Positions 2,884 through 62,851 of a stretch of 64,000 bases of DNA are shown piece after piece. Made by a program: the position numbers and the translations under genes. The DNA is taken from positions 18,438 to 82,437 of the forward strand of contig JAFZXE010000027.1 in NCBI GenBank assembly GCA_017616895.1. The letters are read 5' to 3'. Position 1 is the stretch's first letter, and each line of letters opens with the position of its first letter. The DNA is from Bacteroidales bacterium (GTDB lineage Bacteria; Bacteroidota; Bacteroidia; Bacteroidales; P3). The notes beneath the pieces were generated by a model. The model made no database searches. It was not told where the DNA came from and saw only the letters and a list, made by a program, of their open reading frames with translations.

Positions 2884-4086
2884 ATGGAATCCATAACCAA
2901 AATCTACAAAGACGGCTTCGGACCTTCCTCCAGCCACACCATGGGACCCCACAAAGCGGCCACCATGTTCAAGGAAAAGAACCCCACTGCAGCCAAGTTC
3001 CGCGTAACCCTCTACGGTTCCCTCGCCGCTACAGGCAAAGGCCACCTTACCGACCAGGCCATCATTGCCGCCTCTGCTCCCATTCCCGTCGAGATAGTGT
3101 GGCGTGCCGACATAGTCCCCGAGTTCCACACCAACGGTATGCTCTACGAAGCCCTCGACCCACAAGGCAACGTCACCGACAACTGGACCATCTACAGCAT
3201 CGGTGGCGGCAACCTCGCCAACGAGCAGACCCTCTCCGACACCAAGGAGGTCTATCAGTTCTCCCACATCAGCGAAGTCCTCGACTACATCGAGAAAGAG
3301 GGCCTCAACTACTGGGAGTATGTCGAACAGTGTGAAGGCAAAGAAATCTGGGACTACCTCGCACGCATGTGGCAAATCATGCAGGACACCATCGAGGAAG
3401 GCCTCCACACCGACGGAGTCATCCAGGGTGGTCTCAAGCTCCGAAGCAAAGCACGTCAGTATTTCGTCCGTGCCTCCAGCTTCAAGCCCTCCCTCCAGAG
3501 CCGTGCCCTCGTCATAGCCTATGCCCTTGCTACCTCCGAGCGTAACGCTACTGGCGGTCATATAGTTACAGCTCCCACTTGTGGCTCTGCCGGAGTTCTT
3601 CCCGCCGTGCTCTACCACCTCAAGAAGAACCACCTCTTCTCCGAAAAGTCCATACTCAAAGCCATGGCCACCGCCGGACTCTTCGCCAACGTCATCAAAA
3701 CCCAGGCCTCCATTTCCGGAGCCGAAGTAGGCTGTCAAGGCGAAGTCGGAAGTGCCTGTGTCATGGCTGCAGTAGCTGCAAACCAACTCTTTGGCGGAAG
3801 CCCCCAGCAGATTGAATATGCTGCCGAGATGGCCATGGAGCACAACCTCGGACTCACCTGCGACCCCATGTGCGGCCTCGTCCAGATTCCCTGCATCGAG
3901 CGCAACGCCATGGCTGCTCTCCGTGCTCTCGACATCAACATCTACGCCATGATGTCCGACGGCAAGCACCTCATCTCCTTCGACAAGGTGGTCCGCACCA
4001 TGAACCTCACCGGCAAAGACCTCCCCAGCCTCTACAAAGAAACCGCCCAAGGTGGCCTAGCCCTCCTCACCGACGAAGAAAACTAG
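2884..4086 (+). CDS. sdaA: L-serine ammonia-lyase (iron-sulfur dependent, single-chain)
   Basis: 400-aa ORF with N-terminal GPSSSHTMGP, TAPTCGSAGV, and a cysteine-containing C-terminal alpha domain. These are typical of the SdaA family. Confidence 0.9.
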   Translation: MESITKIYKDGFGPSSSHTMGPHKAATMFKEKNPTAAKFRVTLYGSLAATGKGHLTDQAIIAASAPIPVEIVWRADIVPEFHTNGMLYEALDPQGNVTDNWTIYSIGGGNLANEQTLSDTKEVYQFSHISEVLDYIEKEGLNYWEYVEQCEGKEIWDYLARMWQIMQDTIEEGLHTDGVIQGGLKLRSKARQYFVRASSFKPSLQSRALVIAYALATSERNATGGHIVTAPTCGSAGVLPAVLYHLKKNHLFSEKSILKAMATAGLFANVIKTQASISGAEVGCQGEVGSACVMAAVAANQLFGGSPQQIEYAAEMAMEHNLGLTCDPMCGLVQIPCIERNAMAALRALDINIYAMMSDGKHLISFDKVVRTMNLTGKDLPSLYKETAQGGLALLTDEEN

Positions 4087-4093
4087 CCGTTTG

Positions 4094-4564
4094 ATGCCCC
4101 GTACTCGGATTCTTTTCGTCTGCCTTGGCAACATTTGTCGCAGCCAGATGGCCGAAGCTATGTTTCTTGCCATGCTTAAAGGAAGGGGAGAAGCAGACAA
4201 CTACGAAATCGACTCTGCCGGCACCAGCGACGAAGAGCACGGCAACCCAATGTATCCCCCTGCACGTCGTTGCCTGTTGGCTCACGGCATTGACCCCGGC
4301 GCCCACCGTGCCCGTCAGATAACCCCTGCCGACTACGACCTCTTCGACCATATTATATTAATGGAAGAGGCCAACCTCCGTCAGCTCCGCCGCACCATCC
4401 CAGATGACCCCGAGGGCAAAATCACCCTTCTGCTCGACCATGTCCCCAACGCCTCCCACCGCAACATAGCCGACCCCTGGTACACAGGCGACTTCGAAAC
4501 CACCTACAACGACCTCCTCCTGGGCCTCAACGCCCTCCTGCAGAGCCTGCAGGGGAACCTCTAA
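4094..4564 (+). CDS. low-molecular-weight protein-tyrosine phosphatase
   Basis: Has the CX5R(S) P-loop CLGNICRS near the N-terminus and the DPWY acid loop. I chose the ATG at 4094, one codon inside the TTG listed at 4091. Confidence 0.85.
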   Translation: MPRTRILFVCLGNICRSQMAEAMFLAMLKGRGEADNYEIDSAGTSDEEHGNPMYPPARRCLLAHGIDPGAHRARQITPADYDLFDHIILMEEANLRQLRRTIPDDPEGKITLLLDHVPNASHRNIADPWYTGDFETTYNDLLLGLNALLQSLQGNL

Positions 4565-4623
4565 AAACGCTGAAAGGTTGACACTTCATGTGGCGACATT
4601 TTTGCTTAATTCATTTTTATGAG

Positions 4624-4631
4624 TATCTTTG
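4624..4631 (+). promoter_or_regulatory. Bacteroidota sigma-A -7 box (TAnnTTTG)
   Basis: TATCTTTG lies 97 nt upstream of the ATG at 4728. Confidence 0.5.
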
Positions 4632-4727
4632 CAAAACCAAAACAACTGCTTGACGAGGTAATGGGTTTCCCCTGGTCGGGTGGTTCGACAATACAAGCTG
4701 AACCCGTCATTTTATTCTTTTAGCGAA

Positions 4728-5189
4728 ATGAAAAGAACGTTTTTACTGATTGCCTGCTGCCTCGCGCTACTGGCCATGAGCAGCTGCAAGTCGTACACTC
4801 ACAGCATGCACGACCCCAACATCAGGTACAACTTCACCTCCGACGACCTTGAACTTTCCGAGCAGGTCATCGGCGAGGCCGAAGTGGTCAAGATTCTCGG
4901 CGTCGATTGGAAGAGACTTTTCGGAACCTCAAAATCGGGCAAGTGCAACGGCATCTCGATGGCACAGATTCCAGTGCTTGGCGGAATTGTGGATAAAGGC
5001 GCCAGCTATGCTCTCTACGAACTGATGGAGAAGTATCCCGGATACGATGTCGTCGTATATCCTCAGATTGAGACCAACCGCCGCGCTCCAGTTCTGGGTT
5101 CCAACATCTATTCGGTGACGAAATACAAGGTGGTGGCGCGTCTCGGCAAGCTCAAGAACTCCCAACCCGCAAAGCCGAGTGCCAACTAA
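4728..5189 (+). CDS. hypothetical lipoprotein
   Basis: The internal ATG gives MKRTFLLIACCLALLAMSSC, a signal peptide plus lipobox Cys. No recognisable domain. Confidence 0.6.
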   Translation: MKRTFLLIACCLALLAMSSCKSYTHSMHDPNIRYNFTSDDLELSEQVIGEAEVVKILGVDWKRLFGTSKSGKCNGISMAQIPVLGGIVDKGASYALYELMEKYPGYDVVVYPQIETNRRAPVLGSNIYSVTKYKVVARLGKLKNSQPAKPSAN

Positions 5190-7646: not shown

Positions 7647-7686
7647 GCAGGGTCGTCAGACTATACAAACCCACAATTACACGCAC

Positions 7687-7725
7687 AGAAGCGGGGCAAC
7701 CATCAATTGCCCCGCTTCTTTTTTA
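7687..7725 (+). terminator. rho-independent terminator after pruA
   Basis: 13-bp stem AGAAGCGGGGCAA / TTGCCCCGCTTCT followed by TTTTTT. Confidence 0.85.
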
Positions 7726-7734
7726 CCCCAGCAT

Positions 7735-7752
7735 CCCCCCCCAAAAAAAAAA
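7735..7752. repeat. homopolymer tract C8 A10
   Basis: Direct count gives C at 7735-7742 and A at 7743-7752. A second C6A7 tract is at 7833-7845. Confidence 0.9.
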
Positions 7753-7774
7753 CATATTAAACCCCGCACCCAAA

Positions 7775-7902
7775 ACTTCATACAGCCCCCACGCAACCTC
7801 CAATCCAACCCCACAACCCAAACTTCATACATCCCCCCAAAAAAACTCCAATCCAATCCCACAACCCAGACTTCATACAGACTTCATACAGACCTGATAC
7901 AG
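7775..7902. repeat. C/A-rich word array (ACTTCATACAG family) with a 34-nt direct repeat
   Basis: CTCCAATCCAA(C/T)CCCACAACCCA(A/G)ACTTCATACA occurs at 7798-7831 and 7846-7879 (2 mismatches). Tandem 11-mers ACTTCATACAG, ACTTCATACAG, ACCTGATACAG are at 7870-7902. Confidence 0.9.
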
Positions 7903-7989
7903 ACCCCACCCATACCTTGAGCACACCGCTATTCCAAAAGTGAGGGAACAAACAGATGTGTTTATTCTGAAAAAATTAGTATCTTTGCA

Positions 7990-7997
7990 TATTTAAT
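7990..7997 (+). promoter_or_regulatory. Bacteroidota -7 box (TATCTTTG)
   Basis: Lies 41 nt upstream of the glnS ATG. Confidence 0.6.
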
Positions 7998-8037
7998 GAA
8001 TAGTCTTTATATATATAATATTCTATAATTCTTTAAT

Positions 8038-9741
8038 ATGGATAACGAAATCAAGTGCGAAGAGCAGGGGAGACAGTTGAACTTTCTGGAGGAGATTATT
8101 GAGGACGACCTGAAAAACGGTGTCCACAAATCGATATTGACGCGTTTCCCCCCCGAGCCTAACGGCTACCTGCATATCGGCCACGCAAAGTCGATCTGCC
8201 TCAATTTCGGACTTGGCCTCAAATATGGCGGCAAGACCAACCTGCGCTTTGACGACACCAACCCCGTGAAGGAGGACACCGAGTATGTAGAATCCATCAT
8301 GGAAGACATCAAGTGGCTCGGTTTCCAGTGGGCCGGCGTACACTATACGTCCGACTATTTCGACCAGCTCTACGAGTGGGCAGTCGTATTGATTAAGAAA
8401 GGACTGGCCTACGTCGACGACCAGACACTCGACGAGATACGCGCCAATCGCGGCACAGTGACGCAGCCGGGCAAGAACAGTCCCTGGCGGGATCGTTCGA
8501 TAGAGGAAAACCTCGACCTGTTTGAGAGGATGAAAGCCGGTGAGTTTGCCGACGGCGAGAAAGTTCTGCGCGCCAAGATTGATATGGCTCACCCCAACAT
8601 GCAGTTCCGCGACCCCATCATGTATCGCATACTGCACGCTTCGCACCATCGCACGGGCGACAAGTGGTGCATCTACCCGATGTACGACTACGCTCACGGT
8701 CAGAGCGACTCCATCGAGAACATTACCCACAGCATCTGCACGCTGGAATTCGACATCCACCGTCCGCTCTACGACTGGTTCATAGAGAAGTTGGAAATAT
8801 TTCCCAGTCACCAGTATGAGTTTGCAAGGCTGAACATCAACTACACCGTGATGTCGAAACGCAAACTGCTGCAGCTGGTGAAGGAAGGGCATGTGAGCGG
8901 ATGGGATGACCCGCGTATGCCGACTATCTGCGGATTTCGCCGCAGGGGTTACACTCCCGAAAGCATCAAGGCGTTCTGCGACCGTATCGGGGTGGCAAAA
9001 CGCGACAACATCATCGACTACTCGCTGCTTGAGTTTTCACTACGTGAACACCTCAACAAAGTGGCTCTGCGCCGTATGGCTGTCCTCGACCCCGTGAAGG
9101 TCGTAATCGACAACTATCCCGATGGGCAGAGCGAGATGCTCACCGCCGTCAACAATCCTGAATGTGAGGCCGACGGCACCCGCCAGGTCCCATTCTCGAA
9201 GGAACTCTACATCGAACGCGAGGACTTTATGGAGGTTGCTCCAAAGAAATACTTCCGAATGGCGATAGGTCAGGAGGTGCGTCTCCGCTACGCTTACTTC
9301 GTGACGGCTCAGAGCGTTGAGAAGGACGCCGACGGCAACATCACTTGCATCCACTGCACCTACGATCCGGCAACCCGCGGCGGCGACGCCCCCGACGGAC
9401 GCAAGGTCAAAGGCACCATCCACTGGGTGAGTGCTCAGCATGCCATCGACGCCGAGGTGCGTCTCTTCGACCGCCTCTTTGCTGTCGAAGCGCCCGACGA
9501 CTGTCCCGAAGGCAAGACCTTCCTCGACAACCTCAATCCCGACTCGCTCAAGGTGATGAATGCCAAATGCGAACCAGCCCTTCAAAATTCAAAATTCGAT
9601 ATTCAAAATTGGAAAGACGGCATCGCTCGCTACCAGTTCGAACGCATGGGCTATTTCTGCATCGACAAGGATTCAACCCCCGAACACCTCGTGTTCAACC
9701 GCACAGCAACCCTGAAAGACAGCTGGGCAAAGGTGAAGTGA
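8038..9741 (+). CDS. glnS: glutamine--tRNA ligase
   Basis: 567 aa with the class I HIGH motif ([13 protein letters not shown]) and KMSKS variant (VMSKRK). The GlnRS-type C-terminal anticodon-binding beta-barrels are present. Confidence 0.95.
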
Positions 9742-13783: not shown

Positions 13784-13921
13784 TTTAAGGTTTAAAAGGT
13801 TTAAAAGGGTTCAAACAATCAACAGGTCACAGATCACAGGTCACATATCAACATATCAACAGAAAACATATCAACATATCAACGGTAAACATATCAACAT
13901 ATCAACAGTAAACCCATCAAC
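13784..13921. repeat. composite word array (AAGGTTTAA, TTCAAAC, GGTCACA, CATATCAAC modules)
   Basis: Read directly. The exact 30-mer CGCACTTTAAGGTTTAAAAGGTTTAAAAGG (13779-13808) recurs at 15457-15486. The exact 30-mer AAAAGGGTTCAAACAATCAACAGGTCACAG (13803-13832) recurs at 14386-14415. Confidence 0.95.
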
Positions 13922-13927
13922 ATCCCA

Positions 13928-14344
13928 ATGCTCGGACTTTTAAAATATGATGTGAAAGTGCTTCTCGCGTTGCAGCAGGCCATGAGGGGGAAGGACGACT
14001 TCTTCAACTGGCTGGTCAATGCGGGCTATCCTGAGCTTGCGGCTTTCTACAATCTTATCGAGGAAGACGAGGAGGCTGAGGCTTGGTTGGTGAAACATGG
14101 CTACCATTGGCTGGGTCTTTTAAGTCACGCCATCGACGGCGAGGATGCAGCGAGAGCGTGGGTGTTGAAAAACCTCCACCGCGCCAACTTCATGTTCTGC
14201 ATGGCTTGCAGGAAAGACGATCTGGCTATATCGTGGCTCAGACAGATGAAACTCGAAGTATTGCTGCGACTGGCACAGGAGGTCGCCGACATCAGAAAAA
14301 AGCAAGAGTCCGATGCCGCCTTCCCCTACAAGATGAGATTTTAA
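13928..14344 (+). CDS. hypothetical protein (138 aa)
   Basis: Clean ORF with ATG and composition like its neighbours. No recognisable motif. Flanked on both sides by composite word arrays. Confidence 0.5.
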   Translation: MLGLLKYDVKVLLALQQAMRGKDDFFNWLVNAGYPELAAFYNLIEEDEEAEAWLVKHGYHWLGLLSHAIDGEDAARAWVLKNLHRANFMFCMACRKDDLAISWLRQMKLEVLLRLAQEVADIRKKQESDAAFPYKMRF

Positions 14345-14440
14345 GGTTTGAAAGGTTCAAAAGGTTTAAAAGGTTTAAAGGGTTCAAAAGGGTTCAAACA
14401 ATCAACAGGTCACAGGTCAACATATTAACGCAATTACACA
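14342..14440. repeat. composite word array (AAGGTTTAA, GGTCACA, TTAACGCAAT modules)
   Basis: Begins at the stop codon of the 138-aa ORF and contains the 30-mer shared with 13803-13832. Confidence 0.95.
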
Positions 14441-15461: not shown

Positions 15462-15555
15462 TTTAAGGTTTAAAAGGTTTAAAAGGTTTGAAACATTCAA
15501 ACGTATCAACATATCAACATATTAACGCAATCACGCAATAACACATTAACACAAT
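15462..15555. repeat. composite word array (AAGGTTTAA, TTCAAAC, TATCAAC, TTAACGCAAT modules)
   Basis: TTTAAGGTTTAAAAGGTTTAAAAGGTTTGAAACATTCAAACGTATCAACATATCAACATATTAACGCAATCACGCAATAACACATTAACACAAT, ending 5 nt before the aspS ATG. Confidence 0.95.
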
Positions 15556-15560
15556 AAAAA

Positions 15561-24320: not shown

Positions 24321-24394
24321 TAACCCTTTAAACTTTCAAACCTTTAACCCCTTAAACCTATCAACGTATCAACATATTAACACAATAATAAATC
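24321..24394. repeat. composite word array (TTAAACCTT = reverse of AAGGTTTAA; TATCAAC; TTAACACAAT)
   Basis: TAACCCTTTAAACTTTCAAACCTTTAACCCCTTAAACCTATCAACGTATCAACATATTAACACAATAATAAATC, ending 3 nt before the bactofilin ATG. Confidence 0.9.
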
Positions 24395-24397
24395 ATC

Positions 24398-24825: not shown

Positions 24826-26373
24826 TTGAAACCCGACAACTCCACCGTTTTAGCCCTCTTCCGCCAGTGGGCCGGCGTCGATTGTGAGCTATGTTCAGAG
24901 CTCGGAGCCAACGGCTCCAACCGCAAGTACCTCCGTCTCTCCGCAAGCGGCAAATCCTGCATCGCCGCCATAAACGACGACCTTCGCGAAAACGAAGCTT
25001 TCCTCTATTTCTCCCGCGAGATGAAGTCCCGTGGAATAAGTGTGCCACAGATATACGCAGTCAGCGGCGACCATCGCTGTTACCTGCAGCAAGACCTTGG
25101 CGACACCACCTTATATTCATATCTCTATGCTAAACGTCAGAGCGGAGTTGGGTTTGATGGAGAGTCGATAGAACTATACAAGCAGGTCCTTTCAGACCTT
25201 GTAGATATACAGACACGTTGTCGTGATGTGAATTTCAATCATGCATATCCGCGTAGCGATTTCGACAGACAGGCGATACAGTGGGACTTTAACTATTTCA
25301 AGTATTTCTTCCTTAAGCTACTCTACGTACCCTTCGACGAGCAGCTCCTCGAAAACGACTTCCAGGTGCTTATAGATTACCTGCTCGCTGGCGACTGCTC
25401 CGCCTTCATGTACCGCGACTTCCAGACACGTAATATTATGGTGGTTAGCGGTCAGCTGTCGGTTTCTGGTTGCCGGTCACATGTATCAGATCACGGGTTA
25501 CAACTATACTACATCGACTACCAGGGTGCTCGCAGAGGTGCTCCACAGTACGACGCAGCCTCGCTTCTTTACAGTTCAAAGGCCGAGATACCCGAAGCCA
25601 TAAGGCAGGAATTACTTAAGCATTATGTCGATTGCTATTATCGTCAAGCAGTCAGCGGTCAGTCTTTGTGCACAAGTCACAAGTCACAGGTCACTAGGGA
25701 ATCTTTCACCCAGCGTTTCTACGCATACGTCCTCGCACGTATTATGCAGGCGATGGGTGCATACGGCTATCGGGGGCTTTATGAGCGCAAGGATTATTTT
25801 ATAAACAGCATACCGCTTGCGGTTTCAAATCTTCGAACTGTAGTCGAAAAACTGCCGCAAGAACTGAATATTCCGCATCTAAGGGAAGTGTTTAATGCAA
25901 TAGTAAACTCACAATTAGCAGTCAGCGGTCAGCAGTTTGCAACCCTTCAACCCTTCAATCCTTCACATTCCACAATACCTTCAGACGAATTGACAGTGAC
26001 TGTTGGAAGTTTTTCATACAAGAAAGGGTTGCCGACTGATCCGTCAGGCAATGGAGGCGGATTCATTTTCGACTGCCGCGCGTTGCCCAATCCAGGTCGC
26101 TATCCCGAATATCGGAATGTTACAGGCAAGGACCCGTCGGTTATTGCATTTTTGCAAAAAGAAGAAGCCGTATCTCATTTTATCGACCACGCCTGCGCTC
26201 TCGTCTCACAATCCGTGAAAAAATATACCGAGCGCAAGTTTTCCAGTCTTCAGGTATTCTTCGGCTGCACCGGCGGCCAGCATCGCTCCGTCTATTGTGC
26301 CGAACAAATGGCCTCCTTCCTCCGTAAAAACTTTGATTGTCACGTTGTTCTAAAACATCGTGAGCAGTCTTGA
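24826..26373 (+). CDS. fusion protein: APH-fold (AmgK-like) kinase domain plus RapZ C-terminal domain
   Basis: The N-terminal ~350 aa carry the kinase catalytic region YRDFQTRNIMV and IDYQGARRGAPQYDAASLL, the APH/AmgK pattern HRDxxxxN ... IDFQDA. The C-terminal ~125 aa (LTVTVGSFSYKKGLP, FDCRALPNPGRYPEYRNVTGKD, AFL, GCTGGQHRSVYCAEQ) align motif for motif with the RapZ C-domain. TTG start. Confidence 0.75.
   Translation: MKPDNSTVLALFRQWAGVDCELCSELGANGSNRKYLRLSASGKSCIAAINDDLRENEAFLYFSREMKSRGISVPQIYAVSGDHRCYLQQDLGDTTLYSYLYAKRQSGVGFDGESIELYKQVLSDLVDIQTRCRDVNFNHAYPRSDFDRQAIQWDFNYFKYFFLKLLYVPFDEQLLENDFQVLIDYLLAGDCSAFMYRDFQTRNIMVVSGQLSVSGCRSHVSDHGLQLYYIDYQGARRGAPQYDAASLLYSSKAEIPEAIRQELLKHYVDCYYRQAVSGQSLCTSHKSQVTRESFTQRFYAYVLARIMQAMGAYGYRGLYERKDYFINSIPLAVSNLRTVVEKLPQELNIPHLREVFNAIVNSQLAVSGQQFATLQPFNPSHSTIPSDELTVTVGSFSYKKGLPTDPSGNGGGFIFDCRALPNPGRYPEYRNVTGKDPSVIAFLQKEEAVSHFIDHACALVSQSVKKYTERKFSSLQVFFGCTGGQHRSVYCAEQMASFLRKNFDCHVVLKHREQS
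25444..25494. repeat. in-frame intergenic-type words inside the kinase domain
   Basis: GTTAGCGGTCAGCTGTCGG ... GGTCACATGTATCAGATCAC encodes VSGQLSVSGCRSHVSDH, between the catalytic loop and the IDYQ (DFG-equivalent) motif. Confidence 0.8.
25647..25694. repeat. in-frame intergenic-type words (AGCAGTCAGCGGTCAG; CACAAGTCACAAGTCACAGGTCAC)
   Basis: The exact 16-mer AGCAGTCAGCGGTCAG is shared with 25917-25932. The GTCACA words are as in the intergenic arrays. Confidence 0.85.
25915..25983. repeat. in-frame intergenic-type words forming the inter-domain linker
   Basis: TTAGCAGTCAGCGGTCAGCAG followed by CAACCCTTCAACCCTTCAATCCTTCACATTCCACAATACCTTC encodes LAVSGQQFATLQPFNPSHSTIPS, between the kinase and RapZ_C domains. 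Confidence 0.85.
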
Positions 26374-26463: not shown

Positions 26464-27174
26464 ATGAATAAAACTGTAAAAATTATTCTTGAAGCGGTTC
26501 TGGCCATCCTTGTGATTGGTCTTGGTATCTGGCTCTATGTGAGCATCAGCAAACCCGTGAAATTCGATGAGGAATACAACAAGCGTGGCGTCGCATGTGC
26601 AGACAAACTCCGCGCAATCCGCACCCTCGAGGAAGCCTACAAGCAGACCTACAACTGCTACTGCGGCAATTTCGACACCCTTTTCGGCCGTCTGCTCAAC
26701 GAGGACAGCCTCCGTATCACAACTAAGGTCGTCTTCCGTGACAAATTCCCGCAGGACAGCAACTTCGTCCTTGAGGAAATCTCCGAGCTCGAAGCCATCA
26801 AGAAAGGCTATATCGCACGCAAGGACACCCTCGTCAACCCCATCAAGCAACTCCGTGAAAACGGCAAGCTGCCCATAACCCTGGCCGACGGCTCCGTGCG
26901 CCAGATGACCGACGAGGAAATCCTCAACCTCCGCTATCTCCCTTATCCCAAGGGCACAACCGAAGAGTTTGAAATCAATGCCGGCATGAAAGAGTCAACC
27001 GGTGGTTTCAACGTCCCTGTGGTCGAGGTCAAAGTCGATATCGACCGTCTTATGAGCGACTGCGACCGTCAGCTTGTCGTCAACAAGAAAGACAAACTCG
27101 TCTCTGGCAACAAATATCCCGGCTGGAAATTCGGAAGCATGGACGAGTCCATTGTCGAAGGCAACTTCGAATAA
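26464..27174 (+). CDS. hypothetical membrane-anchored protein
   Basis: 236 aa with a single N-terminal TM helix (ILEAVLAILVIGLGIWLYV). No recognisable domain. Confidence 0.5.
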   Translation: MNKTVKIILEAVLAILVIGLGIWLYVSISKPVKFDEEYNKRGVACADKLRAIRTLEEAYKQTYNCYCGNFDTLFGRLLNEDSLRITTKVVFRDKFPQDSNFVLEEISELEAIKKGYIARKDTLVNPIKQLRENGKLPITLADGSVRQMTDEEILNLRYLPYPKGTTEEFEINAGMKESTGGFNVPVVEVKVDIDRLMSDCDRQLVVNKKDKLVSGNKYPGWKFGSMDESIVEGNFE

Positions 27175-27194
27175 TAACATGTGTTCAAACTACG

Positions 27195-27224
27195 CCCCCG
27201 ATACGCTTACGTCGGGGGTTTTTG
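27195..27224 (+). terminator. rho-independent terminator
   Basis: Stem CCCCCGA / TCGGGGG followed by TTTTTG. Confidence 0.75.
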
Positions 27225-27261
27225 TTTATAGTGTACCGTCTTAAATTTAGCATTAATACAA

Positions 27262-28080
27262 ATGGCCTACACAATTAAAACTTACATAGCCGACACGGCG
27301 GAGGTCAGTTCTGCCGACAAGAAACTCTCTGTCTCGCTTAAGCCCGACGGCTTTTCGTTCACGGTTTTCTCCGGCAACCGTCATCTGCTTCACTATTGCG
27401 ATGTGGCGCTCGACACGACTGGTTCCATCGCCACCATCTCGGCAGACATCAAAGCCCTGTTCGCCGACAAGAAAATCATGACCTTCGGTTTCAAAGAAGC
27501 CGAACTGATCGCCACCACCGAACTCTCGTCATGGCTCCCCGAGCATCTCTACGAGAGAGGCCGCGAACGCCAGTACCTTTCCTTGGTAGGCAACACAAAG
27601 TCGGGCACCACCTGCTTCAGCGACTACAACGAGTTGCTCAAATCCTATGTCGTGTTCTCAGCCGATTCAACAGCCGTCTCGGCATTCAAAATTACCTTCC
27701 CCGGCATCAGAGTTCGTTGTCAGTATTCGAAACTTGTCGTGCCGGAGTTCGTTCAGCAAAGCGACCCCGTCATGTTGCTCAACGTACGCCGAGGATGCTG
27801 TGATATCGTTGCATCGTCGGGCGGACAGCTTCAACTGTCCAACTCATACGAGTGCCCCACTCAGGGCGATGTCATGTACCGCGCTTTGAATTTGGCCAAG
27901 TCGCTTGGAATCGACAATACCGCTCTTACCCTCTGGCTTTGCGGCGATGTTGACAAGTCAACCTACGACATGTTCATCAAATATTTCCCGCAGGTCAAAC
28001 TATACACCGGGCACCCATTCACTTGCAACAACGAGGAGTTCAGAAACATCCATGTCTATAGGGATGTCTTGGTGTTCTAA
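27262..28080 (+). CDS. DUF3822-like protein
   Basis: 272 aa. The N-terminal LSVSLKPDGFSFTVF pattern and the position immediately upstream of rsmD match what I recall for DUF3822 in Bacteroidota. Confidence 0.5.
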   Translation: MAYTIKTYIADTAEVSSADKKLSVSLKPDGFSFTVFSGNRHLLHYCDVALDTTGSIATISADIKALFADKKIMTFGFKEAELIATTELSSWLPEHLYERGRERQYLSLVGNTKSGTTCFSDYNELLKSYVVFSADSTAVSAFKITFPGIRVRCQYSKLVVPEFVQQSDPVMLLNVRRGCCDIVASSGGQLQLSNSYECPTQGDVMYRALNLAKSLGIDNTALTLWLCGDVDKSTYDMFIKYFPQVKLYTGHPFTCNNEEFRNIHVYRDVLVF

Positions 28081-28092
28081 ATTCTAGGACAG

Positions 28093-28644
28093 GTGCGCAT
28101 CATCTCCGGTTCGCTTAAAGGAAGAAGACTCAATCCGCCGACCAATCTGCCGGTCAGGCCCACTACGGATATGGCAAAAGAGGGCTTGTTCAACATACTC
28201 AACAACTATGTTGACTATGAGGAGTGTGACGTGATGGACCTTTTCGCCGGTACGGGTTCGATAACCTTCGAGTTTGTATCGAGGGGCGCCAAGTCGGTTA
28301 CGTCGGTTGATATCAACGGACCCTGCACCGACTTCATCAAGTCGTCGGCAGCTCGTCTCAATGTTCAGAACCTCCACGTGGTGAGAGCCGATGTGTTCGA
28401 CCTGCTCAAACGAGCCTACAAGAAGTTTGACATCATCTTCGCCGACCCGCCATACGCACACGAGGGATTGGCGCAGCTACCCGATATCGTTTTCGAGAAA
28501 GACCTCCTAAGCGATGACGGCATCTTCATCTTGGAGCATCCCAAGGAGTATTCGTTTGAAGAACATCCCCATTTCTGGCAGCACCGCAACTACGGCAAGG
28601 TGAATTTCACCTTCTTCGCAAAGGAATTAGCAGCTAGCAGTTAG
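28093..28644 (+). CDS. rsmD: 16S rRNA (guanine966-N2)-methyltransferase
   Basis: MRIISGSLKGRRL, RPTTDMAKEGLFNIL, SAM motif DLFAGTGS, and the DPPY catalytic motif (FADPPYA). GTG start. The last 5 codons lie in a word array. Confidence 0.85.
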   Translation: MRIISGSLKGRRLNPPTNLPVRPTTDMAKEGLFNILNNYVDYEECDVMDLFAGTGSITFEFVSRGAKSVTSVDINGPCTDFIKSSAARLNVQNLHVVRADVFDLLKRAYKKFDIIFADPPYAHEGLAQLPDIVFEKDLLSDDGIFILEHPKEYSFEEHPHFWQHRNYGKVNFTFFAKELAASS

Positions 28645-28696
28645 TAGTCAGCAAATACATTTGTCTATTCACAATTCACTAATCACAATTCACAAT
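28627..28696. repeat. word array (TTAGCAG/TAGTCAGC family, then ATTCACAAT family)
   Basis: TTAGCAGCTAGCAGTTAGTAGTCAGC overlaps the rsmD stop at 28642-28644. CTATTCACAATTCACTAATCACAATTCACAAT follows at 28665-28696. Confidence 0.9.
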
Positions 28697-28704
28697 AAAA
28701 TATC

Positions 28705-29660: not shown

Positions 29661-29734
29661 GTTGTGATCTGTGACCTGTGACCGGAAACTGCCTACTGAC
29701 GCTAACTGCTGACGGCTAACCGCTAACCGCTAAC
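29661..29734. repeat. word array (GTGACC = reverse of GGTCACA; CTGAC/GCTAACCG family)
   Basis: GTTGTGATCTGTGACCTGTGACC ... CTGCCTACTGACGCTAACTGCTGACGGCTAACCGCTAACCGCTAAC, ending at the TTG start of the next gene. Confidence 0.9.
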
Positions 29735-29735
29735 A

Positions 29736-30212
29736 TTGGAAATAGAACGCAAATATCTCGTCCGTGAGCTTCCTGCCAATCTCGACAGCTATCCCCACGT
29801 CGAGATAGAGCAAGGCTACCTCTGCACATCGCCCACCCTGCGCATCCGCAAGGCGGGCGATGCCTATATACTGACCGTCAAAGAGAAGGTTCGAACCGAT
29901 AGCTCAGCCATCCACAACCGCGAGGAAGAGTTTTCTTTGTCGGCGGAAAAATACGAGCTTTTGAAAGACAAATGTGAAGGACGAATGGTCAGCAAGACAC
30001 GCTACCGTATCGACTTGCGTCGCAGCGAAGGCGACGGCCTTTACTCAAACCTGGTGGCAGAGTTGGACATCTTTCATGGACACAACGAAGGATTGCGCCT
30101 CGTGGAGGTGGAGTTTCCCGACACCTCTGCAGCCGACAGCTTTGTGAAACCAGAATGGTTCGGCGAAGATGTATCTGGAGACAAGCGCTATAGAAATAGC
30201 GCTTTGGTGTGA
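29736..30212 (+). CDS. CYTH domain protein (triphosphate tunnel metalloenzyme)
   Basis: Begins MEIERKYLV, the ExExK signature of CYTH, and is 158 aa. TTG start. Confidence 0.8.
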   Translation: MEIERKYLVRELPANLDSYPHVEIEQGYLCTSPTLRIRKAGDAYILTVKEKVRTDSSAIHNREEEFSLSAEKYELLKDKCEGRMVSKTRYRIDLRRSEGDGLYSNLVAELDIFHGHNEGLRLVEVEFPDTSAADSFVKPEWFGEDVSGDKRYRNSALV

Positions 30213-32559: not shown

Positions 32560-32751
32560 CATTATGAGAAATTGGTAAGCGGCTGTATCGCAAGTGCTTA
32601 TTATATCTTCGATATAATAGTCGGTGGTTTCAAAGCGAGGAGGCAAAACAACAAAAGCAGTTCGGTCGAGCTGGATTTGTAATCACGACATGCACTACAA
32701 TAAGTTGTGTGATGTTGCGTTTTTAAGGTAAAACGGTTTGATCGCAACGAA

Positions 32752-33912
32752 ATGAAATATACCTGCAAATATAGCAAGCGGATAGTGGCGCTTTTGGTTT
32801 TATTGTCTTCTGTGCCGACGGTTATGGGACAGTCGGCGGAATATGTCAAGCGGGTGGTTTGTGAGTTGTCGGATGAGGGGATGTATGGGCGGAGCTGTGC
32901 TCATAAGGGGGACAGCTTGGCGGCGGAGTATATTGCCGGGCAGTTGAGAGAAATGGGGGTGAAGCCTTTGGCGGAGGGGTATATGCAGAAGTATTTGACG
33001 GATTTGTATTCGGTTGACGGTGAGTGTTCGCTGAGTATCAACGGACGTCAGCTGAAACCGTATGATGAGTTTAGGATTGTGCCTATAAGAACATGGACGG
33101 GCTCTCTATGGAGCAACTCATCATGGCAACAGAAATCAGATGGCATTGTTTATATGGCTGTAAAGCAGCTTTCGATGCAGGTGCCAATCAAACCATCGGC
33201 TGACGACCTGCTGCAATGGTATGTGCAAGTACTTGATTCCTCGGAACTCTTTCAACCGCGCAAAATAGAAGGTGTTATGCATGTCAACTTACATCGCGAC
33301 TATGTGACGCAGAATGTGTGCGGATATATCGAGGGGGAGAGCGACTCGACGGTGGTGTTTACGGCGCATTATGACCATTTGGGAATGATGGGCGACAAGG
33401 TGTGCTTTCACGGGGCGCACGACAACGCCAGCGGGGTGGCTTCGGTGCTGGGCATCGCAAAGCATTACAGCACGATGGGGAAGAAACCGCACTATACAAC
33501 GGTGTTTATGCTGTTTAGCGGCGAGGAGGCAGGATTGCAGGGTTCGAAATATGCGGTGGAGCATCCGCTGGTGGATTTGAAGAAGACGAAGCTGGTGGTG
33601 AATCTCGACCTGCTGTGCGGCGGAGCGGAGGGCATCATGATTGTGAACGGGAAAGGGGAGGAGACGCAGCCGTTTGTGAAAAGGATGCAGGCGTTTAACG
33701 AGAAGGAGCAGCTGCTGCCGGAGATAAAGCTGAGAGACAACGCGGCGAACAGCGACCATTGGTGGTTTTCGCAACATTGTCCGGCGATATTCATCTACAC
33801 GCTGGGAGGAAGATACGGCGACTACCACAGCCCTTACGACACTTGCGACAAATGTGGCATCGAGGATTCGTATGAGAAAGTGGTGAGGGTAATTTTGAAT
33901 TTTGAATTTTGA
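32752..33912 (+). CDS. M28-family aminopeptidase
   Basis: Signal peptide plus zinc-ligand motifs FTAHYDHLG, HGAHDNASGVA and FSGEEAGLQGS. The last codons (ILNFEF) are encoded by ATTTTGA words. Confidence 0.8.
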   Translation: MKYTCKYSKRIVALLVLLSSVPTVMGQSAEYVKRVVCELSDEGMYGRSCAHKGDSLAAEYIAGQLREMGVKPLAEGYMQKYLTDLYSVDGECSLSINGRQLKPYDEFRIVPIRTWTGSLWSNSSWQQKSDGIVYMAVKQLSMQVPIKPSADDLLQWYVQVLDSSELFQPRKIEGVMHVNLHRDYVTQNVCGYIEGESDSTVVFTAHYDHLGMMGDKVCFHGAHDNASGVASVLGIAKHYSTMGKKPHYTTVFMLFSGEEAGLQGSKYAVEHPLVDLKKTKLVVNLDLLCGGAEGIMIVNGKGEETQPFVKRMQAFNEKEQLLPEIKLRDNAANSDHWWFSQHCPAIFIYTLGGRYGDYHSPYDTCDKCGIEDSYEKVVRVILNFEF

Positions 33913-34003
33913 AGACTTGAAAACAGCTGGGAGGATATTGGGAGTTTATTGGGAGTTAATACGGAGTTAGTGCGGAGTTAGTGCGGAGTTAGTAGGGAGT
34001 TGG
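33892..34003. repeat. word arrays (ATTTTGA x3 across the stop codon; GGGAGTT/CGGAGTTAGTG family)
   Basis: ATTTTGAATTTTGAATTTTGAAG, then GGGAGGATATTGGGAGTTTATTGGGAGTTAATACGGAGTTAGTGCGGAGTTAGTGCGGAGTTAGTAGGGAGTTGG. The exact 21-mer GGGAGGATATTGGGAGTTTAT (33929-33949) recurs at 45089-45109. Confidence 0.9.
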
Positions 34004-40837: not shown

Positions 40838-40944
40838 AGGTTTTAAGCTGTAAGCTGTAAGTTTTAAGTGCACAGCAGTCAGCAGAAACTTTCTGGTCAC
40901 AGGTCACAGATCACTAATCACTATTGTCAATTCACTATTCACAA
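40838..40944. repeat. composite word array (GCTGTAAGTTTTAAG; CAGCAGTCAGCAG; GGTCACAGGTCACAGATCAC; ATTCACTATTCACAA)
   Basis: Four word families in a row. It shares 15-mers with 18133-18162 and words with 13825-13845, 28665-28696 and 25917-25935. Confidence 0.95.
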
Positions 40945-54260: not shown

Positions 54261-54284
54261 CGAAATAGTTTTGAGTTTAACAAT

Positions 54285-54380
54285 TTTTTATTGCGTTAAT
54301 GTGTTATTATGGGATTGCGTTAGTGTGTTTTTTATTGCGTTAATGTGTTATTGTGGGATTGCGTTAGTGGTTTATTGCGA
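54285..54380. repeat. word array (ATTGCGTTAATGTG family) containing a 44-nt-period tandem duplication
   Basis: TTATTGCGTTAATGTGTTATT(A/G)TGGGATTGCGTTAGTG occurs at 54288-54325 and 54332-54369. Confidence 0.9.
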
Positions 54381-54401
54381 AATGGTTTTAGTTTTGGTGA
54401 A

Positions 54402-54767
54402 TTAATATACATTTATTTCTTTCACTATGGGTTCGGGGAGTTTTGCGTTGATTTTTTCCATAAGGCTGGTGCGGCGGTAGAACACTTCCTGACGGAGTGT
54501 GGCGGTGTCGAACTTGAGTGTGAGCACACCGTCTTTGAACGATACTGACTGCGTGAGTTTCGAGACCAGCTCGCCGGCAATTTCGTTATAGGCTTTGCGG
54601 ACTGCGTTCTCGTCGATTATGGGCCTAAGGTCGTAATAGTCGTAAACGACATTGAGCAACTCGGCGATGCCGTACTCGTGGATACATTCGGGACGGACGC
54701 CTTTCCTCCAGGGCGAAGCGACTTGTCCGGCTCGGCGGCCTCGTGTTATGCGACGGTATTCTTTCAA
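54402..54767 (-). CDS. DUF721-domain protein (DciA-like), downstream of recF
   Basis: 121 aa. Its size, basic N-terminus and position immediately after recF match DUF721 genes in Bacteroidota. TTG start. Confidence 0.65.
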   Translation of the reverse strand: MKEYRRITRGRRAGQVASPWRKGVRPECIHEYGIAELLNVVYDYYDLRPIIDENAVRKAYNEIAGELVSKLTQSVSFKDGVLTLKFDTATLRQEVFYRRTSLMEKINAKLPEPIVKEINVY

Positions 54768-54774
54768 TGGGGAT

Positions 54775-54893
54775 TATATTATTGCGTTATTGCGTAATTG
54801 TGTTAATGCGTTAGTGATTGTGTAATTGTGTTAATGCGTTAATGTGTTAGTGATTGCGTTAATGTGTTAGTGTGTTATTGCGTTAGTGTCTTG
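54775..54893. repeat. word array (ATTGCGTTA / ATTGTGTTAATGCGTTAGTG family) filling the recF-DUF721 spacer
   Basis: The exact 25-mer ATTGCGTTATTGCGTAATTGTGTTA (54781-54805) recurs at 57930-57954. Confidence 0.95.
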
Positions 54894-57914: not shown

Positions 57915-57977
57915 GATTGAAAAGTTGTAATTGCGTTATTGCGTAATTGTGTTATTGCGTTAGTTGCCGACTGCTTT
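57915..57977. repeat. word array (ATTGCGTTATTGCGTAATTGTG family)
   Basis: Fills the lpdA-M23 spacer and contains the 25-mer shared with 54781-54805. Confidence 0.9.
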
Positions 57978-60550: not shown

Positions 60551-62851
60551 TTAGTGTTCGAGAGTCCACTGTCCGGCTTGTAAAGTTTGCTCTTTGTTGG
60601 TGCCGGGGAATATGGTGGCGGTGGTGCCTTCGGGGATGGATATAGTGAAGGTGTGAAGGTGTGGAGGTGTGAAGGTGTTAGCGCTAACATTCTCTACACC
60701 AGAATGTTCCTCGTAAGGCTCGCTAACTTTGTTATACTTGATTTCGACTTTTATGTCGCCATAGAGGGTTGGTTTCGAGGCTTTCACCCATTCTATGCCT
60801 TCGCAGGGCTGCGGGTCGATGTAGAAATGCTTGTAACCAGGATGTTGGGGATCTGGACGGATGCCGGCCAACGCCTGGTAGAACCAGATGCCGATTCCGT
60901 TGTAGCAGTTGTGCACACGGCTGCGGTCCTCCTTGCCTTCACGTCCACAGTCCCATGACTCCCAGGTTGTTGTGGCACCGTTGTTTATCATATATAGATA
61001 ACCTGGGTAATCGGGTTGGCGTAAGATGGTGGCCATCAGATCGGTCTGCCGCTCTTGGATGCACCACTCGGTGAAGATTGGCACCCCCATGAGCCCTCCT
61101 GCAATATGGTCGCGGTATTTATCGTGACAGTCTTTGAGTAGCTGATCTTTGACAGCCTTTGCGATGACACTGTCGGGAGGGATTCCCATAAGTAATGCGT
61201 AGGCTTGGTCGAGAGGTGTACCGTTGGCGTAGGTGTGACTCTCGGGGTGGTAGAAGTGGCGGTGGATGGATGACTTGAGATGTTGTTGCCACTCGGCATA
61301 TCGAATAGAATCAGCTGGGTGCCCTGTGATATGAGCCATCTGAATCATATTCCCCAGACATTCAGCGATAAAACAACTGTTCACATGCAGCACCGACTCC
61401 CCTCCTATGTCAACCCCTTCGGGAGCCAACCAGTCACCGAGAAACCATGAGTGCCGCTCGTTGTCGGGCCAAGGTTGGAGGATATAATCCTCGCAATTCC
61501 TCTCGATGAACTCCAGCCAACGCTTCATTTTGATATATTGCTCGCCGAAAATGATGAATTCACCGTAATTGAGGTAAGTGCGCCATGGGGCTTTGATAAT
61601 GAAGCCGCTCCAGTAGGGTCCTCCGCCCGTGCGGAAGGCAGGCGCCACGTAGGGCAACTCGCCGTCGGGCTCCATGGCATCACACCACGCCCACAGCCAG
61701 TCCTCGTAGGTGTCGCTTACGTCCCAGATGGTTTGAAGCGTCATTGTTGACGAGTTGCCGTCGCCACCGTAACCCATGCGCTCCAGGTGCGGGCAATCGA
61801 CCATATAGCCGCTGAATGTCAAGCATCCGAGAGTGTATTTCACCATGTCGTGGATGGCGTTGAGACGAGGGTCGGAACACTCGAAAGTGGCACCTTCCTT
61901 GGGGTTCACGGCACTGATCTGCAGGGCTCGGGCGTTCAGAACGTCGGCGCCTTTGATGCGTACATATCGGAAGGCGTGAGTATGGAAACGGTTGGAGAAA
62001 TGCTCGATGACACTGTTGTTGGCTATGTAAATATCCGTCTCGGTATGAGGAGGTTTGGCATCTTTGTGGTCGAGGTATTCCATAGTTACCTCATGGCCTT
62101 CCGGCACAGTTGAAAAGTCCGCTTGAAACCAACCTGTAGTCACTTTGCCAAAATCAATCATTATGGCGTTGTCGGGCTGTGTTGAAACACTAGATGGTGC
62201 CAACGTATCGACAATTCGATTGCCTTTGAATACCTGCTGGATGGTATGCAATTTTATCATCCTGAATCCTGGAACCGTGCTTTCCTCTGTTCCAAAAATC
62301 TTGTCAAGTGGCAATCTTTTCGCGGGTTTCCATACGGGTTTTACCCTGGAGTCAAATTGCTCACCCCCAAATTGCAATGGTTGCCAGCTGCCAGTGTAGC
62401 TGTAGCCCATCGGCGAAGCCTCCCACGTAGTGTCCGTTTCTGCAACTGGCATTATGAAATCCAACAAAGCTTCGGCTTGCACGCCCGCCGGCGTTCCATA
62501 AATTCGCCCCCAACCTTGTCCAACACATATCAACAGCTCGTTCTCACCTTCTTTCAGAGTCCCCCTCGTTTCGTAACACACCATCATTGCGCTCTTATTC
62601 AGCTGCGATACTGCGGGTTGCATTACATGATCACCGACTTTTTGTCCGTTGACATACACCTCATGGTAGCCTAGCGAGGTAACATTCAAAATCAATCTGC
62701 CATAGGCAAGTTCCTTTTTTGTCAGAGTAAACTTCTTTCTCACCATTGCCGTCTCCGCCCAGCCGTCGCCTTCACGGCAGCCAATAAACTGCTGTGCTTC
62801 AACGGAAATGGCAGCGAGCAGCAACCATGATATGACGATGAGTTTTTTCAT
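60551..62851 (-). CDS. GH78-like alpha-L-rhamnosidase-family six-hairpin glycosidase
   Basis: 766 aa with a signal peptide, a rhamnosidase-N-like domain, and catalytic-domain motif MVDCPHLERMGYGGDGN (GH78 pattern DCPxRERxGWxGD). Confidence 0.7.
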   Translation of the reverse strand: MKKLIVISWLLLAAISVEAQQFIGCREGDGWAETAMVRKKFTLTKKELAYGRLILNVTSLGYHEVYVNGQKVGDHVMQPAVSQLNKSAMMVCYETRGTLKEGENELLICVGQGWGRIYGTPAGVQAEALLDFIMPVAETDTTWEASPMGYSYTGSWQPLQFGGEQFDSRVKPVWKPAKRLPLDKIFGTEESTVPGFRMIKLHTIQQVFKGNRIVDTLAPSSVSTQPDNAIMIDFGKVTTGWFQADFSTVPEGHEVTMEYLDHKDAKPPHTETDIYIANNSVIEHFSNRFHTHAFRYVRIKGADVLNARALQISAVNPKEGATFECSDPRLNAIHDMVKYTLGCLTFSGYMVDCPHLERMGYGGDGNSSTMTLQTIWDVSDTYEDWLWAWCDAMEPDGELPYVAPAFRTGGGPYWSGFIIKAPWRTYLNYGEFIIFGEQYIKMKRWLEFIERNCEDYILQPWPDNERHSWFLGDWLAPEGVDIGGESVLHVNSCFIAECLGNMIQMAHITGHPADSIRYAEWQQHLKSSIHRHFYHPESHTYANGTPLDQAYALLMGIPPDSVIAKAVKDQLLKDCHDKYRDHIAGGLMGVPIFTEWCIQERQTDLMATILRQPDYPGYLYMINNGATTTWESWDCGREGKEDRSRVHNCYNGIGIWFYQALAGIRPDPQHPGYKHFYIDPQPCEGIEWVKASKPTLYGDIKVEIKYNKVSEPYEEHSGVENVSANTFTPPHLHTFTISIPEGTTATIFPGTNKEQTLQAGQWTLEH
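60645..60678. repeat. 8-bp tandem repeat GTGAAGGT x4 inside the CDS
   Basis: GTGAAGGT GTGAAGGT GTGGAGGT GTGAAGGT encodes TFTPPHLHTFT on the minus strand. It is followed by the palindrome GTTAGCGCTAAC (60677-60688) and a 7-bp hairpin (60687-60707). Confidence 0.9.

Follow-up and report, generated by a model that had tools for sequence, protein, structure and literature searches.

In-frame cassettes of heptamer and octamer words in the loops of a Bacteroidales kinase-RapZ_C enzyme

The kinase-RapZ_C gene and its cassettes

The DNA analyzed here, hereafter called the window, is a stretch of 64,000 nucleotides from a Bacteroidales bacterium (GenBank assembly GCA_017616895.1, contig JAFZXE010000027.1, positions 18,438 to 82,437). 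The gene under study is an open reading frame (ORF) that encodes a two-domain kinase-RapZ_C protein and contains three in-frame segments made of tandem 7- to 8-bp words, which we call cassettes (Table 1). The APH-type phosphotransferase domain covers residues 25 to 268 and is weakly matched, at 26 bits (Pfam PF01636), and the RapZ_C domain covers residues 390 to 514 with 119 bits against a gathering threshold of 27 (Pfam PF22740). A profile of the family matched RapZ (PDB 5o5s, E = 1.4e-24) and an aminoglycoside phosphotransferase (PDB 3csv, E = 1e-16). Assignment to the AmgK (MurNAc/GlcNAc kinase) equivalogs was rejected, with NCBIfam scores of 35.7 bits against a cutoff of 500 and 30.2 against 550, and the matches support only a generic APH fold for the kinase half. 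A search of Rfam with the whole window and a megablast of plasmids with the kinase-RapZ_C gene gave no match.

Outside the cassettes, the ratio of nonsynonymous to synonymous substitution rates (dN/dS) was 0.07 to 0.09 in five comparisons, synonymous sites being saturated in a sixth, whereas in the cassette columns the proportion of nonsynonymous differences (pN) was 0.33 to 0.55 and that of synonymous differences (pS) 0.42 to 0.69. These values indicate that the gene is functional and under strong purifying selection and that the cassettes are essentially unconstrained. A preliminary description of this DNA had considered that the ORF might prove to be two genes, interrupted by a sequencing error, and repetitive sequence of metagenome origin does raise the suspicion of an assembly or sequencing artefact or of a decaying pseudogene. 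However, the identical 515-amino-acid (aa) product was found on 7 contigs, two further 515-aa alleles are known from independent assemblies, and the frame is kept in all alleles from independent assemblies (ENA, NCBI, and Logan). Together with the low dN/dS, these alleles leave an artefact or a pseudogene with next to no credibility.

The three cassettes lie where the preliminary description had placed them and have a composite layout that is found between genes of the window too: (GTYAGCR)n is followed by TTTS and this in turn by (GGTCACA or CAACCCTT)n. Site 3 reads TTAGCAGTCAGCGGTCAGCAG-TTTG-(CAACCCTT)x3.2, and site 2 reads GCAGTCA GCGGTCA G-TCTTTG-(CACAAGT)x3.4. Site 1, which had also been described as a word array, does hold words of the module (GTTAGCG GTCAGCT .. 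TTTCTGG .. GGTCACA TGTATCA GATCAC) but is a degenerate copy of it. Tandem Repeats Finder (TRF) called three arrays in the gene, namely CACAAGT x3.4 at 25671-25694, AGCAGTC x2.9 at 25917-25936, and CAACCCTT x3.2 at 25940-25965. The exact 16-mer AGCAGTCAGCGGTCAG, already noticed as common to the second and third segments, occurs at 25647 and 25917 only; with up to 2 mismatches allowed, two matches were obtained in 0 of 100 shuffles. In total, about 45 extra residues are spread over three loops, corresponding to about 9% of the enzyme's residues.

The cassette words are widespread between the genes of the window. Arrays of period 7 to 11 occupy 174 bp/kb of noncoding DNA (about 17%) versus 4.3 bp/kb of coding DNA, and at least one array is present in 24 of the 39 intergenic gaps. 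The kinase-RapZ_C gene, which makes up 2.8% of the coding DNA, contains three of the eight coding arrays. The word GTTAGCGGT also occurs in intergenic DNA at 29719/29726(-), ACAGGTCAC at 13822, 13836, 14405, 29671(-), and 40899, and AGCAGTCAGC at 40874, while AACCCTTCAACCC, common to site 3, is found at 24783 in the leader of the kinase-RapZ_C gene itself. Exact copies of the junction TTTCYGGTCACAGGTCAC lie at 29671(-) and 40890(+), and a copy with 3 mismatches lies at 25463 within site 1 (chance expectation, 0.11). Alignment of the in-frame and intergenic copies yielded a single composite module. Up to 36% of the 9-mers of the inserts were present in the 0.5 to 0.9 kb of local intergenic DNA of their own genome (6 to 36% in four of five genomes and 2% in the relative L082), versus 0.1 to 0.9% of the 9-mers from the remainder of the gene.

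Since the arrays have a period of 7 to 8 bp, not 3, the reading frame rotates through each of them. Furthermore, 34 of 51 array words are free of stop codons on exactly one strand, and all in-frame arrays use that orientation; MacGregor made the same stop-codon argument for the orientation of TAACTGA repeats (PMC4679880). The period, together with the words and junctions held in common with the intergenic arrays, argues that the inserts are a DNA-level rather than a peptide-level phenomenon.

Table 1. Coordinates of the kinase-RapZ_C gene, its cassettes, and other array features in the window
Feature	Position	Strand	Description
Kinase-RapZ_C gene	24826..26373	+	Uninterrupted 515-aa ORF, TTG start
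Site 1 cassette	25444..25503	+	Residues 207-226 (VSGQLSVSGCRSHVSDHGLQ); degenerate module; +16 residues
Site 2 cassette	25642..25697	+	Residues 273-291 (RQAVSGQSLCTSHKSQVTR); ~10-12 residues added, helix-helix loop
Site 3 cassette	25915..25983	+	Residues 364-386 (LAVSGQQFATLQPFNPSHSTIPS); ~12-15 residues added, inter-domain linker
Leader array directly 5' of the kinase start codon	24783..24825	+	AACCCTTCAACCCC.., then AACATATC x2.5
Intergenic module copy	29663..29740	-	(GTTAGCG/GTCAGCA)x5 - CAGTTTCC - GGTCACA GGTCACA GATCACA
Intergenic module copy	40866..40942	+	CAGCAGTCAGCAG - AAACTTTCT - GGTCACA GGTCACA GATCACT AATCACT ...
Degenerate intergenic module	28630..28700	+	GCAGCTA GCAGTTA GTAGTCA GC .. 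TTTG .. ATTCACA x4
Glutaminyl-tRNA synthetase array	9581..9610	+	(TTCAAAA)x4.3, hypervariable loop before the QFER strand
Alpha-L-rhamnosidase array	60645..60678	-	(ACACCTTC)x4.2 on the coding strand, encodes NTFTPPHLHTFT near the C-terminus

Insert sites and the inter-domain linker in homologues

A protein search returned at least 8000 matches, of which the best 120 were inspected, and a genome scan returned 252 loci, of which 80 were kept, their matches covering approximately residues 5 to 515. The loci kept come from Bacteroidales, Marinilabiliaceae, Cytophagales, and Lewinella, and 88 loci entered the count of single ORFs. The GTDB representatives do not include the window's species, and the best locus of the genome scan was 68% identical. 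The inserts were mapped on alignments of 26 and 89 sequences.

The orthologue alignment placed insertions exactly at the cassette coordinates, which bears out the proposal that repeat arrays create coding sequence. In the 89-sequence alignment, inserts of at least 5 aa were confined to four internal sites: one following residues 209-226 (site 1), one following residue 276 (site 2), one in the linker following residue 369 (site 3), and a fourth, empty in the window, following residue 43. The extra residues of site 1 extend a beta-hairpin at its turn, between the Asn of the catalytic loop and the Asp of the IDYQ motif. The spacing between these motifs had been described as lengthened, and it is, but by other figures than the approximately 21 residues against 8 to 12 first given: 27 residues separate N203 from D231 versus 11 in the core family, a difference of 16. 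An AlphaFold2 model of the protein (mean predicted local distance difference test [pLDDT] score, 81.9) places site 1 in a turn between strands 204-208 and 225-229, site 2 between helices 257-278 and 291-319, and site 3 in the inter-domain linker. The pLDDT fell below 50 at residues 215-217, 280-285, and 368-386; confidence was also low at residues 235-240, where there is no array site. The model suggests that the cassette sites are permissive surface loops.

Relatives fill the same sites with different words. In codon alignments of the syntenic relatives L081 to L084, site 3 consists of (ACATATCA)x4 in L081, a word usually found just 5' of start codons, and of (CAACTTCA)x3 in L083, and L084 has an extended (GGCAGCR/GTCAGCR)n + (TTTCAAT)n module at site 1. 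In more distant lineages these loops were filled independently, by arrays of AATCAGA (L048), AAGTCGA (L050 and L071), or AGGTCGG x5 plus CTCATAC x3 (L088), or by palindromic heptamer modules (L018 and L087). Some lineages carry ordinary, non-repetitive inserts there, so that the loops are permissive in general. Over 89 loci, the array content of the gene correlated with the array density of its flanks (Spearman 0.57, p = 5e-9, uncorrected for phylogeny; medians, 21.7 vs 0 bp/kb).

The preliminary description had proposed that the kinase and RapZ_C domains were once separate genes, fused by read-through of an intergenic array, and that split adjacent genes might be found in relatives. Indeed, the linker holds an intergenic-type array, and in L081 it is the ACATATCA array that otherwise precedes start codons. 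However, both domains lie in a single ORF at 88 of 88 loci. The best 120 of the at least 8000 homologues all come from Bacteroidales and, with few exceptions, carry annotations for the two domains; their modal length is 468 to 470 aa, with no array. Separate adjacent kinase and RapZ_C genes were not found in any relative among these loci and proteins. A short linker is present in every homologue. The fusion occurs with a short linker free of arrays across Bacteroidota, and L085, L086, and L084, which belong to the same clade as the window, also have no array in the linker. The third segment is therefore in the linker, as first described, but the array only lengthens what was there. As the fusion is old, the array was added to a pre-existing linker. 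These comparisons support an old, widespread Bacteroidota family of kinase + RapZ_C proteins whose domain fusion was not created by arrays, and we regard a read-through origin as extremely improbable.

Strain turnover, module copies, and other arrays

Closely related alleles differ by whole repeat units. P0003 and P0128, which are 99% identical, are distinguished by 7 additional aa, GHRSQVT, that is, 21 nt or 3 x GGTCACA, and L082 has 2 units where L085 has 5. Such allele pairs show replication slippage within the arrays. Larger changes were also seen. L085 and L086 have a protein identity of 95% and, outside gaps, a nucleotide identity of 93.5%; a 16-codon module at site 1 of L085 is missing from L086, and their site 2 sequences are unrelated. 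In the filled site 1, 57 nt replace 9 nt of the empty one, and neither a target-site duplication nor fixed termini were seen in this comparison. The site-1 insert is present or absent inside one 90% cluster, and P0143 combines it with a P0018-type site 2.

The near-conspecific strains L122 and L123, which cluster with the window at 92 to 94% protein identity, allowed the comparison to be extended to the window itself. At site 1, flanks of about 40 nt are essentially identical in the three strains, whereas the 45 nt between them are unrelated to those of L122 and L123 and of equal length. Site 2 is a canonical module in L122 and a TAACGCAA-type octamer array in L123, and site 3 is nearly alike in all three. 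The intergenic arrays of the same strains are in some cases identical (the module at 29663..29740 is unchanged in L122 and L123), in others changed in copy number, and in others replaced; identity in the spacers without arrays is about 99%. One intergenic ATAAGTCTA array counts 6 units in the first of two conspecifics and 3 in the second. Altogether, cassettes differ between strains that are 92 to 95% identical. The neighbor genes of the same 9.5-kb block are about 95% identical between genomes and almost without internal indels. The kinase-RapZ_C protein is merely 74 to 84% identical to its relatives, with the divergence concentrated at the cassettes.

Approximately 20 nt of site 2 differ between the window and L122, by clustered substitutions or compensating indels. 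A neat -7/+7 compensatory slippage was considered here and rejected, since the alignment gave clustered substitutions or -5/+5. The gene as a whole is a mosaic: 30-nt windows in 24961-25005 are 97 to 100% identical to L081 and 77 to 80% to L122, and 25126-25185 shows the reverse pattern, being closer to L122 than to L081. This mosaic indicates recombination between lineages.

Could the arrays be functional, as a phase-variation switch or as selected hypervariable or disordered loops, possibly with an internal RapZ_C start after site 3? With 7- to 8-bp units, gaining or losing a single one shifts the frame; variation at the four loops recurs across many lineages; the window and L122 differ over about 20 nt of site 2, as noted above; and TTG and GTG codons lie in frame after site 3. 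However, the tracts are short (2 to 5 units) and imperfect, unlike known contingency loci. Short fragments aside, about 85 members listed for ten 90% clusters do not depart from their cluster's length, and no frameshift at the arrays was found among the alleles aligned or read. Truncated alleles were considered as phase-off variants and rejected: the frameshift of P0024, the only frameshifted allele seen, is inside RapZ_C rather than in an array, and P0162 diverges near site 3 and is a possible chimera. In addition, this is a cytoplasmic, housekeeping-like enzyme, and its cassette peptide changes in the manner of a neutral sequence. We judge a function of the arrays to be improbable; most likely, the cassettes are carried along neutrally and serve no function.

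Evidence for the copying of whole modules came from relatives. In L084, (GTYAGCR)n-(TTTCAAT)n modules end on their 3' side in the non-repetitive 10-mer TTCAATTCGT. All five copies of this 10-mer in 9.5 kb (chance expectation, 0.018) have that position and share one strand; four are intergenic, and the fifth is part of the reading frame at site 1. The 10-mer has 0 copies in five related loci and the window. In L087, one module of about 52 bp is present at both site 4 and site 1 of the kinase gene; the two near-identical copies in this gene (3244-4800, P0113, also P0099) both read QQVADSELP(A/S)TCYPLPA. The in-frame modules of L087 and L018, in which heptamers are combined with complementary heptamers, form strong predicted hairpins (z of the DNA fold, -4.6 and -5.5), whereas the cassettes and intergenic modules of the window have no hairpin potential (z from 0.1 to -0.9), and no inverted repeats were found. 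The copies in L084 and L087 show, in relatives, the copying or recombination of modules between places.

A very small discrete mobile element with a dedicated enzyme, akin to the palindromic elements of Rickettsia or the small dispersed repeats of cyanobacteria and landing in frame so that the cassettes would be element copies, was weighed against these data. It would account for module junctions and ends that are conserved both between genes and in frame, for the genome-specific signature of the five L084 copies, for the duplicated module of L087, for the hairpins of L087 and L018, and for the presence or absence of an insert within a 90% cluster. On the other hand, the replacement of 9 nt by 57 nt between L085 and L086 lacks target-site duplication and fixed termini, the window cassettes lack hairpin potential, length and words vary continuously with slippage altering copy number, and some arrays have no dispersed counterpart. 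No candidate enzyme was seen, although no search for one was made. Such an element is in our view unlikely.

A scan of genome contigs with CAGTTTCYGGTCACAGGTCAC gave a single, unrelated match on a Peptococcaceae contig, the pattern being too specific. A scan of metagenomes for the module junction gave 32 loci, of which around half had no arrays and matched by chance, and is no census of the window's clade. Among these loci (L090-L121), GGTCAC-type heptamer arrays were observed in soil, sediment, and freshwater contigs, high-GC organisms included (for example L091, L094, L096, L101, L104, L110, L111, and L119), often paired with a second array that is sometimes an inverted complement. The GGTCAC-type word class is thus not confined to Bacteroidales.

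Two other genes of the window carry in-frame arrays. In glutaminyl-tRNA synthetase (GlnRS), the array loop has 8 residues more than PDB 5bnz; its length is the same as in clade relatives and its sequence is different, the closest relative, at 96% identity, having LQNSKSESQN at this loop. A fresh insertion was rejected, because the loop length is unchanged within the clade, which points to a rewritten loop. The alpha-L-rhamnosidase matches Pfam Bac_rhamnosid6H and related domains; its array lies within the C-terminal domain, and alignments to PDB entries end before it.

Arrays also reach the ends of genes. GCAGCTA/GCAGTTA heptamers (28630-28644) of the degenerate module supply the codons for AASS, with which the product of the upstream RsmD-like gene ends, and this tail varies in every relative (ELAASS, EVESSGQ, EVATS, and EVDNGQ). 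The stop codon of ORF 32713-33912 is inside an AATTTTG array (33891-33913). Toward start codons, the order of arrays is AAGGTTTAA-type nonamers, ACAGGTC heptamers, and ACATATCA/AACATATC octamers ending a few nt before the ATG; this order recurs at 13787-13926, 14343-14419, 15465-15557, and 24330-24397. For Bacteroidetes, 5' untranslated regions (5'UTRs) that are unstructured and without Shine-Dalgarno sequences have been described (PMC3155529), and the G-poor octamer leaders would fit such 5'UTRs.

Other intergenic regions stand apart. The 380-bp region at 7647-8028 contains a C-rich repeat with a 48-bp period (7738-7880) followed by CAGACTTCATA 11-mers (7867-7904), and its composition is unlike that of the other arrays. 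The longest arrays in the window, with up to about 14 units, are ATTGCGTT/TTATTGCG/GTTAATGT-type octamers at 54284-54888 and 57927-57967, and such octamer arrays flank a small ORF (54402-54773). One of the few array-free intergenic regions, 27174-27262, lies 3' of a gene for a 236-aa protein and has a GC-rich hairpin followed by a T-run (GCCCCCGAT..GTCGGGGGTTTTT), which every relative retains and which resemble an intrinsic terminator.

Interpretation and comparison with known repeats

We consider that the cassettes probably represent a spill-over of the dynamics of heptamer and octamer repeats, that is, slippage and module copying, into permissive loops. Unconstrained DNA in several gut and rumen Bacteroidales lineages would be continually colonized and remodeled by arrays of 7- to 9-bp words, organized as composite modules of the type (GTYAGCR)n - TTTS - (GGTCACA, CAACCCTT, ...)n in the window. 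Replication slippage would change the copy number within an array, and whole modules would be copied or recombined between places. The same two processes would act within genes, where products would survive only if the total length remains a multiple of 3, if the words have the orientation that is free of stop codons in all frames, and if the site is a structurally permissive surface loop. The enzyme would offer four such loops, and the three filled in the window allele would give the approximately 45 low-complexity, rapidly changing residues.

Several points weigh against this account or narrow it. For the GAGTCGA array that L081, L122, and L123 carry at site 1, no counterpart between genes was found in 123 loci and the window, so some in-frame arrays may have grown in situ instead of being imported. 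Given the visible mosaic structure of the gene, some of the cassette swaps could stem from allelic exchange with diverged lineages, not from ectopic copying. The near-absence of indels in the neighbor genes of the 9.5-kb block makes neutral spill-over lean on an unusual tolerance of these loops, and the correlation between gene and flanks (Spearman 0.57) is not phylogeny-corrected.

A bolder possibility is that rumen and gut Bacteroidales possess an undescribed copy-and-paste system for 45- to 110-bp modules of tandem heptamers or octamers, genome-specific as in L084 and acting both between genes and, in conserved enzymes, in frame at permissive loops. We find this doubtful. If true, it would be a Bacteroidales counterpart of the Rickettsia palindromic elements (RPEs) or of the small dispersed repeats (SDRs) of cyanobacteria, with hypervariable peptide cassettes as a by-product, and it could open the long-unexplained question of how heptamer arrays arise in bacteria to experiment.

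Under the spill-over account, the locus would be a natural experiment in which the same arrays pass three filters (reading frame, stop codons, and protein structure), with datable events between near-identical strains in the form of 21-nt steps, presence or absence, and cassette swaps. Neutral repeat generation would add and go on rewriting about 9% of a conserved enzyme's residues and would reach the essential GlnRS too. There are consequences for annotation as well. The cassettes inflate apparent divergence (84% protein identity to an orthologue versus about 95% for the neighbors), they weaken domain detection (the APH match is merely 26 bits, and several homologues lose it), and they may mislead readers toward inferring a recent fusion.

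Among known systems, the RPEs, reportedly described by Ogata et al. in 2000, are said to lie in frame in conserved proteins at surface positions compatible with the fold. They are palindromic, 100 to 150 bp long, and of defined sequence, are stable after insertion, and also occur in noncoding DNA. RPEs are discussed in PMC1779305 and PMC10969869 as well. Like them, the cassettes are dispersed repeats in frame at surface positions of a conserved protein, with noncoding copies; unlike them, the window cassettes are 45 to 70 bp long, non-palindromic, made of tandem words, hypervariable, and not stably inherited. The SDRs of Nostoc, attributed to Elhai et al. in 2008, are reportedly shorter than 30 nt, mobile-like, genome-specific, and associated with tandem heptamer tracts. 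They differ in being near-identical units in conserved context, whereas no equivalent fixed unit is defined here. MITEs and other transposons differ by terminal inverted repeats and target-site duplications, neither of which was seen here (L085 versus L086). In the contingency loci of Haemophilus and Neisseria, simple sequence repeats (SSRs) within ORFs form long, perfect tracts near the 5' end and give on and off alleles. The cassettes resemble them in having tandem units that are not a multiple of 3 inside an ORF, with copy number altered by slippage; here, however, the tracts lie inside the gene, have few and imperfect units, and were seen in no alleles but in-frame ones.

The arrays also resemble known heptamer repeats, among them the short tandemly repeated repetitive (STRR) heptamers of Calothrix and Nostoc, reportedly described by Mazel in 1990. 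Our literature search found no paper on multi-word modules such as those of the window or on hypervariable in-frame cassettes in rumen Bacteroidales. Repeats of the heptamer class have been known in bacteria since 1990 and 2007, and their origin and dynamics are unexplained (PMC4692102, PMC4679880). Long SSRs of this class (Mrazek et al. 2007) are over-represented, mostly intergenic, and poorly understood; they have units of 5 to 11 nt, lie near start and stop codons, and vary in copy number, for which slippage has been proposed, and the surveys find repeat units that are not a multiple of 3 to be rare in coding DNA (PMC4679880, PMC4692102). The arrays described here likewise consist of tandem 7-nt units with an intergenic excess, positions near start and stop codons, variable copy number, and a sporadic phylogenetic distribution. 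They differ in that many words are chained in ordered composite modules amounting to about 17% of noncoding DNA, in their rumen and gut Bacteroidales host, and in lying in frame inside conserved enzymes.

TAACTGA heptamers form direct repeats in Beggiatoaceae, Cyanobacteria, and five Bacteroidetes (MacGregor 2015, PMC4679880). One set within an ORF encodes LSVINYQLS, in a protein resembling RNA polymerase beta' and at a surface loop that is variable, and another lies near the end of a SAICAR synthase gene (PMC4679880). As in the window, those arrays end within a few nt 5' of start codons, and stop codons limit their orientation in ORFs. The TAACTGA repeats consist of a single word, and their in-ORF cases are anecdotal in MacGregor's work, whereas the arrays studied here occupy several sites per gene, reoccupy the same loops in many lineages, and turn over as cassettes within a species.

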